From Naegleria gruberi (taxonomy: Eukaryota), in NCBI GenBank assembly GCA_000004985.1, contig GG738879.1: a stretch of 64,000 bases of DNA. One strand, given 5' to 3'. Positions 2,125-7,570 of the stretch are shown piece by piece (the first letter of the stretch is position 1; every line of letters starts with the position of its first letter). A program made the translations under genes and the position numbers. Under the pieces are notes generated by a model. That model searched no databases, had not been told where the DNA came from, and saw nothing but the letters and a program-made list of their open reading frames with translations.

Positions 2125-3240
2125 TTAAACTGATTGAGTAATACCAAAAGAATCAAAATTATCTGGACATAATTTCGAATAATGTTCAACACCCTTCTCA
2201 AAATCCTCATCACTAATTAACAATTCATCCAACACTTGTTCCAACCCTGTGAAATTATGTCTCAGTCCAATGAACACAATTTCCTGTCGTCGGTCGCCAA
2301 CTCTTTCAACAAAATGTTGTTTAACATTCTCAAAAACTGTCTTTCCATATAACTGGATGGATTCTTCTTCACCTAAAGTATCAAAGAATTTCAGATATCG
2401 TTCAGTGAAAAGAAAATTGAACAATTTTTCAGTATGGAAAGGCTTTCGTCTTCTGTAAACAAAACTGTTGAATCCATATTCGAAAGTTTCTGGGGTTTGC
2501 ATTCCTCTGAGTTCTTTTAACCACCAGGATTGAATGCTGCCTTTTCAAAATCAAATAGTCCAGTATTCAATACTTTGGAAAGATCTAGCTGAGAATTCAC
2601 TGTTTCATACATTGGCGTCTGTTTTTATTATGGATTTAGTTTAGCCATTAAACTCTTAATCTTTTGAACTTCTTCAATTGAAACTAAATCAATCTTATTA
2701 ATGATAATTACATTTGCAAACTCAAATTGATCGATCAAGAGAGGAGCTATATTTCTTCCATCATATTGCGACAATCTATCAACAAACTTTTCCTTCATTG
2801 TCAAGACAGAATTCAAATCATGCATTAAATTTGCAGCATCAACCATAGTAACACAAGAATCTAATCTTGCAAAATCTGAAAGTGTAAACGAATCATCTTC
2901 ATCCAACTCTCCATCTTCATCTTCCACCTGGAATTCAACATATTCGAAGGTGAATGTCTCTGCAACCTGAAGTGGCTCTCCAATACCTGTTGATTAAATA
3001 TCACAATAGTCAAATACTTCAGTTTGAGATAATTCAAAGAGTTCAACCAGCAAATCTTCTCTCAATGTACAACAGATGCACCTGCAATCAAGAATTATTA
3101 CACATGGAATCAAATTACTTCTACCACTTCCTAAGAAACCACTCAACAGAGTAACTGGTATCTTCTTTCTTTTATATTTATCAAAAATGGATTTGCACAG
3201 GCTAGGAGCTTGTGCTGTTTGTTCTCTCCTTAAGATCCAT
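2125..3240 (-). pseudogene. CobW/ZNG1-family (COG0523) metallochaperone GTPase, disrupted and likely a pseudogene.
   Basis: Family motifs are present and in order on the minus strand: KIPVTLLSGFLGSG (P-loop, but the Walker lysine is Arg), CICCTLREDLL (CxCC), FDYCDI-*-STGIGEPLQVAETF (switch II), LIDQFEFANVIIINKIDLV (NKxD), NTGLFDFEKA, and a CobW C-terminal domain (QTPETFEYGFNSFVYRRRKPF…). Lesions: TAA at 2993..2995 sits exactly where the conserved Glu of the ETTG motif would be. A tandem TAA TAA lies at 2625..2630. A 1-nt frameshift (TT where TTT is needed) lies near 2517..2522, between NPGG and LKELRG. A further frameshift lies between the ATG at 3238..3240 and the P-loop frame. About 35 residues (the NEFGE/switch I block) are missing between GSG and CICC. 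Confidence 0.5.
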
Positions 3241-3463
3241 TAAGAATTGTTGTTGTTGTTGTGCTCTTTTTATTCTTTTTATGAATTTAAAACCCGTACC
3301 GCAGAATTAAAAGATTTACGGTGCAATTCTTTGAATTGAATATTCTATGAAGTATAGCAAGGTATTTGTGAGTTAGTACGATTGAAAAGGAGGAATTAAG
3401 GGTGAATGAGAAAACACCAACAATTATATGAACGCCTTAATATTCTTCAAATCTTCTCCAAGA

Positions 3464-3534
3464 AGGGAGATAGTTCAGTGGTAGAACATGGGATTGTGGT
3501 TCCTAAGATCAGGGTTCGATTCCCTGTCTTCCTA
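3464..3534 (+). tRNA. tRNA-His (anticodon GTG), 71 nt.
   Basis: Cloverleaf read directly from sequence: acceptor AGGGAGA/TCTTCCT, D-arm GTTC-AGTGGTA-GAAC, anticodon stem TGGGA/TCCTA with loop TTGTGGT (anticodon GTG), T-arm CAGGG-TTCGATT-CCCTG, discriminator A73. G-1 is not encoded, as in eukaryotic tRNA-His. A TTTT pol III terminator follows at 3539..3542. Confidence 0.85.
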
Positions 3535-3589
3535 CACCTTTTTAAATATTAATAATACAAGTTTATTGTAAGGCAGAGTCCAATTTAAA

Positions 3590-4606
3590 TTACATCATGG
3601 TACAAGCTCCCTTCTTTCTCTTTTTCACCTTATTCATAATTTGGACAGCACAATCCATAAAGCTCTCCTCAACATTTGTTCTAGTTTTTGCAGAAGTTTC
3701 AAAGAAGGTAATATTTCCAAACTTTTTGGCAACTTCACGTCCTTCATCTGCTGAAACAACTCGTTCATTCTTCAAATCTGCCTTATTACCAACCAAGACA
3801 ACTGCTGTCTCACTTGCTAAATTACGATATTCATCAGCATTGTCAAATTCTTTAGCTTGAGCAATTTGTTCAAGGAATGAATAAACTTCATCAAATGAAT
3901 TCCTATTAGTGACACTATAAACAATGACGAAACCTTCTCCTTGTCTAATATATTGATCACGAAGTGTACTATTTCAATGTGACATTTCCACACAAATTAA
4001 AATGATCGTTAGTTTCCAACATGATATATAGTGACACATACCAAAATTCTTCCTGTCCTATTTACGTGCCAACAACAATCACACAAAATATTTGGAAATT
4101 ATTTGACGTTCTCTATGAACAACAATTTCCACACAACAACTTACCAGCAGTATCCAATATATCCAAAATTACTGGTTTTTTTTCAATATGTGTATCTTTT
4201 CGGTATCTTCATCATCAAATATATTAAATTTGTAATATAAATATATATTAACAATTATCATATGTGTTGATTATGACAATAAATATTATATAATAAATAA
4301 TTTAGTGTGATGATGTAAATTTGATGATGTAAAATTTGTACAAATCCACAAATAATAATAATAACAAGAATTGTTATTCATGATGAATTTCTAATAAATT
4401 AATAACATACGAATCTTCCAAGGTCGGATCATATTGTTCTACAAATACATTTTGAATAAGTTGGACGATGAGAGCTGATTTTCCTACACCTCCTAATTTC
4501 CATGTTAAACATTCCAATAATTTAGACGAAACATACCTGAACCGAAAACAACAATTTTCAATTCTTCTGGTTGCTCCTTTGCGTTCTTGTCCTTCTTTGG
4601 TGGCAT
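3590..4606 (-). CDS. Ras-family small GTPase (Ras/Rap-like), 202 aa. Five exons: complement(join(3590..3968, 4042..4057, 4145..4206, 4411..4492, 4537..4606)).
   Basis: Spliced product: [96 protein letters not shown]…LVGNKADL…[14 protein letters not shown]…[14 protein letters not shown]1, G3 (DTAGQE), NKxD and ETSAK motifs are all present. The C-terminus has a polybasic stretch followed by a CAAX box (CTMM). Donors are GTATGT (x3) and GTAAGT; acceptors are AG; exon phases are consistent. It includes a 16-nt micro-exon. Confidence 0.75.
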
Positions 4607-5689
4607 GTATGAAATATTTTATTGTTATCGTGTAAATGTTTGACAAGTGGCATGGGACAGGGAACTGTTTTCCAATATTCCTTCGGAAGATAAGCTGAAC
4701 TGTTAATATTATTGTAACCGGTGGCCTTTCAACTTGTTTGGTCAATTGTTGATTGGTTTGATCAGATCTGTAAATCGATAGATCTGTTAAATGTGTTGTA
4801 AATATTATAAGTGTACACAACAAGCATTGAGAATTAACTGATTATAAATTGTTGTTGTTGTAATAGACTGATAGTTGCACAGTTCCAATTGTAAGCTGTT
4901 TCACTTTTGGAATTAGGCGGTTAAGTGGTTATTCGAATCTTCAACGTGAGATTTGTGAGAGGAGTGATTCACCCTCAAGATAATTTTGAAAGTGCTTGAA
5001 TTTCTTTAAACGAATCAAAAGGAAATTTGCTAACTATTTCTTCCAGTCCAATAAAATATTAATAATATTCGAAAGGGATAATGAAAACCATTCACACAGC
5101 CATGGTTGCAACAAAGTTTCACCCACTGATGCATTAACAGAATATCTAATCACGAATCATCACCTTAATCTACTATCTCTGCAATGGCTTGTACTAATTC
5201 ATCATTACTTTCGTAATTCTTGGTTTTTCATTCTCACTATGAAAAGGGTTAGAAAGCAAATATATGGGGAAGGTGATTTTCCTCCTAACCTAATTTACAC
5301 TTTAACTCCAGGAATGTTTGGCGTTTACCTCCAATTTCCAATCAAACATCCTCAAAATATGGGATTCTGTATCCGAAACTAATTGAAAGAATTTAAATAA
5401 CCACAGTAAAAAGAAAAAGCAACACCGCATCATTAAATATATTAACTCACATTACGCAAGCTTTGGATTTCTATCACCACCTTGCTTGTGTTTCTTCTAA
5501 TTAATACGAAACTGTTGCTTTCACTCATCATCAATTTTACCTTGTACTTTTAACACAATAGAGATTAATAGACTCACACTAACAACAACCAAATACTAAT
5601 ACCACAAATGTCATCATTACCCATCTCCTATACCGGCTATTGTGACGACGAAAGCAACAGAGAATCATCACATCTTGATTCCCAGTCCA

Positions 5690-6040
5690 TCATCCATACT
5701 ATTGCTCAATAATAATAGTCCTCATTCTCATCATTTGCATCATCCACAACAACACCAACAGCAGCATCAACATCCAAATCATCACAATCACCGATCCATT
5801 ACCATGAGTATGCTTCAACATCAACAATTGGTCGAGTGTTTTGCTCAAGATCAGATCGATCTGGAGAGCGTTTCATCGTCCTATTGTTGTTCACCTCCGT
5901 CTGCTTCCTCCTCCATGCTACCTGCTACAGCTGCACACCATCACGATGAAACAACTTCTTCTTCTTGTGGCTCGGCTAGTCTTGATGTTGGTAGAAATAA
6001 TTATCTGCACCATCATCATCATCAGAAAGGTTCCTTCGAC
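5690..6040 (+). repeat. Imperfect CAN-codon trinucleotide tracts (CAT/CAA/CAG/CAC) encoding His/Gln runs within the RGS-SAM gene's 5' region.
   Basis: Visible runs: catcatcatcatcatcag (6010..6028) and caacaacaccaacagcagcatcaacatccaaatcatcac (5746..5785). Confidence 0.5.
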
Positions 6041-7570
6041 TCGTTCGATTCCAATCATACGAATTCATCATCGGTATCGGCTGTTGTGGATGAGCGATTA
6101 TTATTATCATCATCGAGGAATGATTCCTTCTCTTCCTTTCATTTGATGGAGGAACAGCCTATTTTCATTCATTCACCATCCAATTCTATTTATTCACCCT
6201 CAGAGGAACATGTTCTCTCATCAAGCCTTGATAATAATAATAATGCGATAACACTTAATAACAATTCTAACAATTCTAATAATGATAAAGTAAAAGAGTT
6301 CAGCAAGTTATCATTTACTAATAACAGTACTAATAATCAACATTACAATAATCCACCAACTATTCGATCATCTCCAAGAGATATCAAATCAATTGCCACA
6401 AGTAAAGTTGCCTACTCTCTCAATGATACCAAATCTACTCAATCCAAAGGTCAGATCGAAGAAGGAATATCAGAATTGGAACAATTATTTGCCTCTAGAA
6501 GAGCTTTCAATTCACTTTCGAAAAAGTATTCAACAGATAACTTGCTTAAAGAACAAAAGAAGAGAAACAAACATTCCACTGATAAGGATCATTTACTATT
6601 GCTACAACAGCAACATCAACCTTCTTTGACAAGTGCCTCTTCATTTACTGCCACTACTTCTACATCATTCCTGGAACCATCCTCCAATGCCATTCGTTCA
6701 ACCAAGTCAACTTCATGTCTTTCACCATCTTCCCCAATTAGTGATTCATTTGAAGAGATCAAGTCAATAATTCAAGCTTACTATAATTACGAGTCCTTTG
6801 TTGAGAGTGCAGATGGGAGAGAAGAATTAAGATTATATTTGAGGAAGAGACATAATGAAGAGATGTTATTAATGTTGGAAACTAGAATTACCTTTCTGAG
6901 TTTCTATGAGGAAGGTTCTAATTTCTATGTGGGAAGAAGAGCTCTGTTAAAAGTGAAAGAATTTCAAATGATTTATTCTCAATTCATTGATACCAATTCT
7001 CAATTCTGTATTAATATTGATTCAAGTATAAGAAACAAATTTGTAAAGCTCAACCCTCGAGTGAATAAGGTTAATACAGAAGAAGAGGCTGCTCTTCTAG
7101 TGAAGGAAATTGATGAATGTTTGGACACGCTTCATTTTAGTGTATCACTTCAGGTCAAGACTGAAATTTTCTCACAATTCAAAAAAACGGAGGAATTTCA
7201 AACTTTCATTCTTTCAAAAATTATAGAACTCCAAGGAAAGAAAGCTTGGGAAGGACTTGAACGTCAAAATGGTACATCATTACATGACAGTCCATCCAAT
7301 CATGGAGGATTTTTCTCCTTCCTAAAGAAAAACCCTCAAAATTCAGCCATCAAGAAATTTGAAGAGAAATTAATTGAGGAATTTCTGATAGAAAATGAGC
7401 TCGCTGAATATTGTGGACAATTCAGAAAGAAAAAACTCTACACTCTAAGCCAAATCCAAAACTACTCTTGTGATGATTATCTAAAGTTGGGTGTTATCAA
7501 AGTTACTCATCAGACCCGATTAATTCGTCTCGTTGGACAATATTTCAAATCCTATTGTAATAAGAATTAA
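5804..7570 (+). CDS. RGS-domain plus C-terminal SAM-domain protein with a Ser/Asn/His/Gln-rich low-complexity N-terminus. First in-frame ATG is at 5804; the ORF is open from 5642.
   Basis: RGS signature blocks: ELRLYLRKRHNEEMLLMLETRITFLSF…QMIYSQFIDTNSQFCINIDSSIRNKF…LDTLHFSVSLQVKTEIFSQFKKTEEFQTF. SAM-like C-terminus: EEFLIENELAEYCGQFRKKKLYTLSQIQNYSCDDYLKLGVIKVTHQTRLIRLVGQYF. The track's M at 5642 is GTG. The 54 codons upstream of the first ATG (HHLHHPQQHQQQHQHPNHHNHR) look coding, so the true 5' end is uncertain. Confidence 0.6.
   Translation: MSMLQHQQLVECFAQDQIDLESVSSSYCCSPPSASSSMLPATAAHHHDETTSSSCGSASLDVGRNNYLHHHHHQKGSFDSFDSNHTNSSSVSAVVDERLLLSSSRNDSFSSFHLMEEQPIFIHSPSNSIYSPSEEHVLSSSLDNNNNAITLNNNSNNSNNDKVKEFSKLSFTNNSTNNQHYNNPPTIRSSPRDIKSIATSKVAYSLNDTKSTQSKGQIEEGISELEQLFASRRAFNSLSKKYSTDNLLKEQKKRNKHSTDKDHLLLLQQQHQPSLTSASSFTATTSTSFLEPSSNAIRSTKSTSCLSPSSPISDSFEEIKSIIQAYYNYESFVESADGREELRLYLRKRHNEEMLLMLETRITFLSFYEEGSNFYVGRRALLKVKEFQMIYSQFIDTNSQFCINIDSSIRNKFVKLNPRVNKVNTEEEAALLVKEIDECLDTLHFSVSLQVKTEIFSQFKKTEEFQTFILSKIIELQGKKAWEGLERQNGTSLHDSPSNHGGFFSFLKKNPQNSAIKKFEEKLIEEFLIENELAEYCGQFRKKKLYTLSQIQNYSCDDYLKLGVIKVTHQTRLIRLVGQYFKSYCNKN

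Follow-up and report, generated by a model that had tools for sequence, protein, structure and literature searches.

The minus strand of the 64-kb window (the whole stretch of Naegleria gruberi DNA analyzed here, 64,000 nt) carries, between positions 4606 and 3590, what we take to be the gene for the 202-aa Ras-family GTPase XP_002675282.1, interrupted by four short GT–AG introns and containing a constitutive micro-exon of 16 nt. We put the probability of this reading at roughly 90%. Two of the introns lie 16 nt apart within the stretch coding for G3 and switch II, and it is this spacing that makes the segment between them a constitutive micro-exon.

Exon–intron structure of the gene

We read the minus strand of window positions 3300–4900 and joined the five segments proposed in the original prediction. 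Exon 1 (4606–4537, 70 nt) opens with the ATG at 4606–4604 and encodes a basic N-terminal extension, the start of the P-loop and the first base of the Gly24 codon, which intron 1 (4536–4493, 44 nt; GTATGT..TAG) interrupts in phase 1. Exon 2 (4492–4411, 82 nt) supplies the remaining P-loop (GGVGKS), helix 1, the effector loop YDPTLED and two bases of the codon for Ser51 (Ras Ser39), where intron 2 (4410–4207, 204 nt; GTATGT..AAG) enters in phase 2. Exon 3 (4206–4145, 62 nt) codes for 20 residues and the first base of Gly72 (Ras Gly60). This codon is split in phase 1 by intron 3 (4144–4058, 87 nt; GTAAGT..TAG). Exon 4, the micro-exon GACAGGAAGAATTTTG (4057–4042, 16 nt), has ...cgtaaatAG on its 5' side and GTATGT on its 3' side, the latter being the donor of intron 4 (4041–3969, 73 nt; GTATGT..TAG), which falls in phase 2 in the codon for Cys77 (Ras position 65). 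Exon 5 (3968–3590, 379 nt including the TAA stop at 3592–3590) encodes the remainder of switch II, a 10-residue clade-specific insert, NKAD (G4), SAK (G5), KVKKRKKG and CTMM.

Joined in this way, the exons form an ORF of 609 nt, a multiple of three, which specifies 202 aa and has one stop, at its end. All four introns have GT..AG ends, and their phases run 1, 2, 1, 2. Five codons ahead of the ATG there is an in-frame TAA, and read-through of intron 1 leads to a stop. The exon coordinates, lengths, splice dinucleotides and phases given in the original prediction were all reproduced by this re-reading, with one correction: the acceptor of intron 2 is AAG, not YAG.

Published size definitions of a micro-exon vary, with upper limits of 15 nt (PMC8831610), 27 nt (PMC8378409) and 30 nt (PMC7821500). 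As an internal exon of 16 nt at 4057–4042, placed between an acceptor (TAG) and a donor (GTATGT), exon 4 is a micro-exon by the ≤27–30 nt definition.

Intron 1 contains a branch-like motif, TTAAC, whose branch A lies 12 nt from the 3' splice site, and in intron 4 a motif of the ACTAAC type is found 40 nt from the acceptor. A search of intron 3 for a YTRAY branch motif found none. We also scanned positions 3000–5200 with Rfam for an RNA hosted in an intron, and the sole match was a neighboring tRNA.

The encoded protein

The conceptual product matches the Pfam Ras family (PF00071) with 180.2 bits, against a cutoff of 21.6, over residues 17–188 and profile positions 1–161 of 162. This score and the clean 609-nt ORF uphold the prediction of a five-exon Ras-family GTPase gene. 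When the protein was aligned to Ras and Rap structures over residues 15–187, the G motifs were in register and there was no gap in switch II. The G1 P-loop, GxxxxGK[ST], appears as GSGGVGKS at residues 22–29 and spans intron 1. G2 reads YDPTLEDSY (residues 44–52), with T47 aligned to Ras T35. G3 with the catalytic glutamine reads DTAGQ (residues 69–73), Q73 being Ras Q61, and G4 and G5 are found as NKAD (residues 138–141) and SAK (residues 169–171). With a complete G1–G5 set, the protein is predicted from its motifs to be a GTP/GDP switch.

Both a polybasic stretch and a CAAX box had been predicted at the C-terminus, and both are there: CTMM (residues 199–202) follows KVKKRKKG and constitutes a predicted prenylation site. 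By the CAAX rules, a terminal Met predicts farnesylation. The tail is probably farnesylated at CTMM and held to the membrane by the adjacent polybasic stretch, by analogy with K-Ras4B.

Other features of the protein had to be revised. The N-terminal extension, given earlier as 16 aa, amounts to 12 residues relative to H-Ras and Rap1, query residue 15 aligning with H-Ras residue 3. The figure 16 counts the residues ahead of the first β-strand lysine. Compared with the Ras and Rap structures, 10 residues are also inserted between helix 3 and strand 5; this insertion and the N-terminal extension are common to a clade of heterolobosean and environmental sequences. The core had further been described as Rap-like. 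Yet Ras position 61 is occupied by glutamine (Gln73 in DTAGQEEF) and not by the Rap-defining threonine (DTAGTEQF), the C-terminal residue is Met rather than Leu, and Ras, Rap and R-Ras score about equally, so the label is not supported. The best PDB scores were 171.4 bits for a 'Ras protein' (5wdr), 167.3 bits for Rap1b, 164.9 bits for R-Ras2 and 163.3 bits for H-Ras. One apparent strong match, P0004, was set aside because it is a synthetic concatemer of mutant K-Ras peptides.

The micro-exon is required for an intact product

Exon 4 codes for bases 2–3 of Gly72, for Gln73-Glu74-Glu75-Phe76 and for bases 1–2 of Cys77. Numbered as in Ras, the segment runs from Gly60 to Ser65 and takes in catalytic Gln61 as well as the first part of switch II. 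As had been proposed, three exons contribute to the G3/switch-II motif DTAG-QEEF-C, and DTAGQ is present only when the 16-nt exon is used. Inclusion of the micro-exon is obligatory for function: it carries the catalytic glutamine and keeps the frame, and without it the product would run out of frame and lack switch II, G4, G5 and the lipidation signal. Specifically, omission causes a frameshift after DTA and a stop ~51 codons on, and reading through intron 3 or intron 4 likewise leads to a stop. The included junction across exon 3, the micro-exon and exon 5 is the 26-nt sequence GCTGGACAGGAAGAATTTTGTACACT, that is, GCTG, GACAGGAAGAATTTTG and TACACT in succession. In a skipped junction (4145 joined to 3968), GGATACTGCTG would run directly into TACACTTCGTG.

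A random 16-mer lying between two real exons might close the frame by accident, and closing the frame is by itself easily achieved. In the 176 nt between exons 3 and 5, 15 candidate inserts are bounded by AG..GT and restore the frame; nine of these are free of stops, which leaves eight others besides the micro-exon. However, only 4057–4042 restores DTAGQEEFCTLRDQY without an indel relative to the orthologues, and only this segment codes for the invariant (G)QEEF(C), which is found at this place in every orthologue. Sixty-four of the 4^16 possible sixteen-mers code for (G)QEEF(C) in phase, which corresponds to ~1.5e-8 per site and ~2e-6 over the 176-nt interval by our own arithmetic, assuming uniform base composition and with the AG/GT flanks not yet required. 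We also compared the micro-exon codons of five taxa (N. gruberi, N. fowleri, the Naegleria metagenome contig L003, Willaertia magna and Acrasis kona). All differences are synonymous (GGA/GGT, CAG/CAA, GAA/GAG and TTT/TTC), as would be expected of a translated segment under purifying selection. The enumeration of candidates and the codon comparison effectively refute a chance match, which we consider the least probable of the explanations weighed here.

The same structure occurs in a second sequence. A contig from an ENA metagenome (L004; ERZ929261) is identical to window positions 4142–3472 at 669 of 671 positions; the micro-exon and both flanking introns are unchanged, and both differences lie 3' of the stop codon. 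Because this contig is independent, the arrangement is not an assembly artefact. Exact look-up of the 202-aa protein in a contig/transcript collection returned no record, as did that of its paralogue P0011, and an exact search for GCTGGACAGGAAGAATTTTGTACACT among JGI metagenome and metatranscriptome contigs gave 0 matches. Nor does GCTGGACAGGAAGAATTTTGTACACT occur in the 64-kb window, which therefore holds no processed copy.

Intron positions in related genes

Three orthologues, from N. fowleri, N. lovaniensis (C9374_010164) and W. magna, are 80–89% identical to the N. gruberi protein, and they also have the basic N-terminal extension beginning MPP, the 10-residue insert before β-5 and the polybasic and CAAX tail. 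The N. fowleri protein is 86% identical over its full length, with all G motifs conserved. The A. kona homologue (P0010), named 'Ras-related protein Rap', is ~60% identical and belongs to the heterolobosean clade with the loop insert. A search of metagenome contigs with a pattern from the alignment of four orthologues gave 317 pattern matches, none of them confirmed by tblastn, and thus no further Naegleria loci.

For the homologues, we took the genomic loci and derived exon structures by an exact spliced-alignment search that was required to reproduce each annotated protein. The intron comparison covers the genes described below, and within Naegleria these are the N. gruberi gene itself, N. 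fowleri and contig L003. N. gruberi also has a paralogue, XP_002681563.1. The N. fowleri gene (FDP41_009956) has introns at Ser26, Ser54 and Cys80, all in phase 2. The last two correspond to N. gruberi introns 2 and 4; the first, the counterpart of intron 1, lies 2 nt upstream of the N. gruberi site. DTAGQEEFC is encoded contiguously in this species. Contig L003 has the same arrangement, with GATACTGCTGGACAAGAAGAATTCTG contiguous and then gtaagt, the intron being at the Cys codon. The position and phase of intron 4 are thus common to N. fowleri and L003, and the acceptor position of intron 2 is visible in L003 as well. The W. magna orthologue (ABK040_003419) has only two introns, at Phe76 and Gly89, both in phase 1 and neither at an N. 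gruberi position. In A. kona, introns lie at Asp53 and Gly80, again in phase 1. The latter (GCA G^GA CAA) matches N. gruberi intron 3 in position and phase, whereas position 65 is intronless, so the A. kona gene has no micro-exon.

More distant genes differ further. Of two W. magna paralogues, P0006 has a phase-0 intron in VQL|IQ and an intronless switch II, and P0035 includes an intron at Glu63 in phase 2, a different position. A Pelomyxa Ras gene includes a phase-1 intron at Ala59, 3 nt upstream of the Gly60 phase-1 site. A chytrid Ras gene has an intron at K16|S17 and none in switch II, and a fish classical Ras gene is interrupted at the familiar vertebrate positions (37|38, 97 and 150|151), none of which coincides with a Naegleria intron. 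Overall, introns occupy five positions within ~17 nt of the switch-II coding stretch across the sampled genes.

The original prediction had suggested a comparison of intron positions with genes of related species. Introns 2 and 4 are shared by N. fowleri, and the site of intron 3 is used in A. kona, but the micro-exon occurs in no relative sampled. Among the sampled Naegleria and Willaertia orthologues, only N. gruberi has intron 3, and among all sampled genomes only N. gruberi has introns at both position 60 and position 65, 16 nt apart. The micro-exon exists because both are present.

The restricted distribution of intron 3 also bears on whether the gene is functional at all. The locus might be a decaying paralogue, in which 'intron 3' is an insertion that disrupted an exon and the micro-exon is an unspliced leftover of that exon. 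Intron 3 is missing from the other orthologues in Naegleria and Willaertia and has no YTRAY motif, and neither the protein nor the 26-nt junction was found in the respective collections looked up (the contig collection and the JGI contigs). However, the insertion starts with the consensus GTAAGT, ends with TAG and lies exactly at phase-compatible points, and A. kona has an annotated intron at the same site. Moreover, the whole ORF is intact, every G motif is conserved at 86% full-length identity to the N. fowleri protein, differences between the micro-exon and the orthologues are confined to synonymous sites, and the independent N. gruberi-like sequence L004 is identical over the region. We therefore regard decay as very improbable, and favor a functional gene whose micro-exon is constitutively spliced.

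Origin of intron 3

Two histories were compared for the intron at Gly60. In a rough neighbor-joining tree, with manually entered H-Ras and Rap1B sequences as outgroups, the Acrasis protein falls outside the duplication that gave rise to the P0001 (XP_002675282.1) and P0011 groups of Naegleria and Willaertia. Ancestral retention of intron 3 needs at least three losses, and parallel gain needs two gains. By parsimony this slightly favors a recent gain in the N. gruberi lineage, 16 nt upstream of the older Naegleria intron and independent of the A. kona intron at the same site. In addition, an exact loss of intron 3 with intron 4 kept 16 nt further 3' is awkward under the model of 3'-biased, cDNA-mediated loss. 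We also counted in favor of a recent gain the five intron positions in ~17 nt of switch II. Against it, we counted that intron loss is generally commoner than gain. On balance a recent gain is a tentative proposal, to which we give somewhat less than even odds.

In sequence, introns 3 and 4 share only a 12-nt exact match (TTGTGTGGAAAT), and 6 of 500 mononucleotide shuffles (0.012) reached the observed score. Comparison of intron 3 with the rest of the 64-kb window yielded nothing beyond 11–13-mers at chance level. The match is too weak a basis for deriving intron 3 from intron 4 by duplication or from a repeated element. Outside Heterolobosea, the Gly60 phase-1 intron was absent from the one fish classical Ras gene, the chytrid Ras and the Pelomyxa Ras examined, a very small sample. 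A recent gain, if true, would represent a datable birth of a micro-exon by intron insertion, and a parallel intron gain in Heterolobosea. It is the sole question at this locus with some evolutionary interest.

Public annotation of the locus

Micro-exons of this size can escape gene callers, and the locus had been expected to be mis-annotated or split. This was not the case. Over its full length, the assembled protein shows 100% identity to XP_002675282.1 (EFC42538.1; UniProt D2VL04, D2VL04_NAEGR), whose public record is named 'ras family small GTPase [Naegleria gruberi strain NEG-M]'. The 16-nt exon must therefore be part of the deposited gene model. That model may in turn have been predicted with guidance from homology, in which case its match to our model is not independent proof of splicing. 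The micro-exon was missed only by naive, prokaryote-style ORF calls on metagenome contigs, one of which (P0007) covers the ORF of exon 5 and begins spuriously with MSHWNS. It was also missed by tblastn with the full protein, a search that found exons 1, 2, 3 and 5.

A literature search for Naegleria micro-exons or Ras intron positions returned no paper on this exon or gene. RefSeq and UniProt already list the gene with its exact product, and the finding is an ordinary, correct one. It confirms the deposited N. gruberi model, including the exon for the catalytic glutamine; re-annotation is not needed, and there is little import beyond the gene. Since tblastn misses the exon, the locus could be used as a positive control for micro-exon-aware aligners and gene callers on protist genomes.

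Splicing of the micro-exon

Splice complexes cannot assemble on both sides of a micro-exon simultaneously, and constitutive micro-exons make up for this by having strong splice sites and by the late removal of one flanking intron (PMC8831610). In the N. gruberi gene, introns 3 and 4 are only 87 and 73 nt long and their donors (GTAAGT and GTATGT) are close to the consensus, so each would most likely be recognized across the intron, by intron definition. Removal of the two introns is probably sequential, because 3' and 5' splice sites 16 nt apart cannot both be occupied by spliceosomal complexes at once. Intron 3 may be the slower of the two, given its lack of a YTRAY motif, although this is speculation. 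We infer the order of intron removal, like the lipid modification of the tail, from sequence features.

Several observations were counted against the gene as modeled: the missing YTRAY motif in intron 3, the AAG acceptor of intron 2, the absence of the exact protein from the contig/transcript collection and that of the junction 26-mer from JGI contigs. Inclusion of the micro-exon in the mature mRNA is supported indirectly, by the reading frame, by conservation and by identity to the public protein.

It is also conceivable that the micro-exon is a regulated cassette, such that a sizable fraction of transcripts omit it or keep intron 3 or 4, and that this unproductive splicing tunes expression of the GTPase. 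Skipping would produce the premature stop ~51 codons downstream, and a retained intron 3 or 4 would likewise introduce a stop. Intron 3 has no recognizable branch motif of the YTRAY type, micro-exons in general are spliced less efficiently (PMC8831610), and N. gruberi transcriptomes in general have been found to contain skipped exons and retained introns (PMC6142364). Yet near-consensus donors and short introns favor efficient constitutive splicing. Moreover, close relatives do without the arrangement, which makes a conserved regulatory device unlikely. We consider regulation of this kind improbable, though less so than decay of the gene, and prefer constitutive inclusion. RNA-seq data exist for N. 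gruberi (ENA PRJEB23822; PMC6142364).

Comparison with known Ras proteins and micro-exons

The Naegleria protein resembles three familiar groups, namely classical Ras (H-, K- and N-Ras), R-Ras2/TC21 and Rap1. All have complete G1–G5 motifs and the effector loop YDPT(L/I)EDSYRK in common with it, and all three groups score 161–171 bits against it in the PDB comparison. As in Ras and R-Ras, catalytic Gln61 is followed by the remainder of QEE(F/Y), and as in K-Ras4B, the protein ends in a polybasic stretch and a farnesyl-type CAAX box. It shares GSGGVGKS with Rap1, but Rap has Thr61 where the Naegleria protein has Gln. Unlike Ras, R-Ras2 and Rap1, it bears the 12-residue N-terminal extension and the 10 inserted residues between helix 3 and strand 5.

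Micro-exons are already known from conserved domains (PMC8831610, PMC7821500, PMC8378409), and the N. gruberi gene is a tidy example of how one appears when two independently distributed introns fall within 16 nt of each other. Like the constitutive coding micro-exons of plants and animals, the Naegleria exon is very short, lies in a conserved domain, has strong splice sites on either side and escapes similarity searches. Unlike the plant and animal cases, it is found in a heterolobosean protist with short introns, is not conserved within its genus and is not mis-annotated.

Intron positions in the Ras gene and its relatives

We compared introns across the switch-II coding stretch of the N. 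gruberi Ras gene, its orthologues in N. fowleri (L001) and Willaertia magna (L002), the Acrasis kona homologue (L006), and two further loci (L008 and L010). In these sampled Ras-like genes, the DTAGQEEx(C) coding stretch itself is split at five distinct intron sites, all inside ~17 nt: Ala59 phase 1 in Pelomyxa, Gly60 phase 1 in N. gruberi and A. kona, Glu63 phase 2 in the W. magna paralogue P0035, Phe64 phase 1 in the W. magna orthologue itself (P0003), and position 65 phase 2 in Naegleria. N. gruberi and N. fowleri have intron 1 at sites 2 nt apart (window 4493-4537 versus L001 3077-3367). In N. gruberi, the 44-nt intron interrupts a glycine codon in phase 1 (GGT TCA G^GA), whereas its 289-nt N. 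fowleri counterpart interrupts a serine codon in phase 2 (GGA AG^T GGA). The serine codon is also switched between the two, being TCA in N. gruberi and AGT in N. fowleri. The displacement is a candidate intron slide, or else a case of independent introns.

Introns 3 and 4 of the N. gruberi gene have in common an exact 12-mer, TTGTGTGGAAAT (window 4125-4136 and 3984-3995, minus strand). In 500 mononucleotide shuffles, the score observed for this match was reached just 6 times (0.012). The 12-mer could be a product of chance, a common splicing signal, or a trace of shared origin.

Public gene models

The motif LIVQLIQN is invariant except in the annotated model of one N. gruberi paralogue, XP_002681563.1, encoded outside the window. 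That model reads ALIVQ-IQNVF, without the leucine. The missing residue lies at the exact site of a phase-0 intron, VQL|IQ, in the W. magna counterpart (P0006; L005 1647-1744). From these sequences, the public model looks like the product of a 3-nt splice-junction error. Two oddities also turned up among the database matches. A 'hypothetical protein' of the fish Pangasianodon hypophthalmus (P0005, locus L009) has a model that fuses the first two Ras coding exons with a second, tandem copy of them, and P0004 strings together mutant K-Ras N-termini in a synthetic concatemer.

Genomic surroundings of the Ras gene

The Ras stop codon is followed, after 54 nt, by a convergently oriented tRNA-His(GTG) gene (window 3464-3535, plus strand; ARAGORN; Rfam tRNA, 69 bits). 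Because an AATAAA on the Ras strand (window 3567-3562, minus) intervenes between the two genes, the 3′ end of the Ras mRNA must lie no more than ~30 nt from the tRNA gene. We looked for a tRNA beside the Ras orthologues of N. fowleri and W. magna and found none. Elsewhere nearby, ORF fragments at window 2125-2927 (minus strand) resemble parts of an intron-split gene, and a 642-aa low-complexity ORF (window 5642-7570, plus strand) is divergent from the Ras gene.

A Ras-like subgroup

Between helix 3 and strand 5, the protein carries an insertion of 10 residues relative to Ras and Rap structures, at residues about 118-127, encoded by exon 5. Relatives from Naegleria, Willaertia and Acrasis, together with several environmental sequences, have a comparable insertion in the same place. 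These insertion-bearing relatives also have in common the basic N-terminal extension (residues 1-14 here). Insertion and basic extension mark out a distinct Ras-like subgroup, for which we found no described function. H-Ras, Rap1B, Pelomyxa Ras and chytrid Ras have neither the insertion nor the N-terminal extension.
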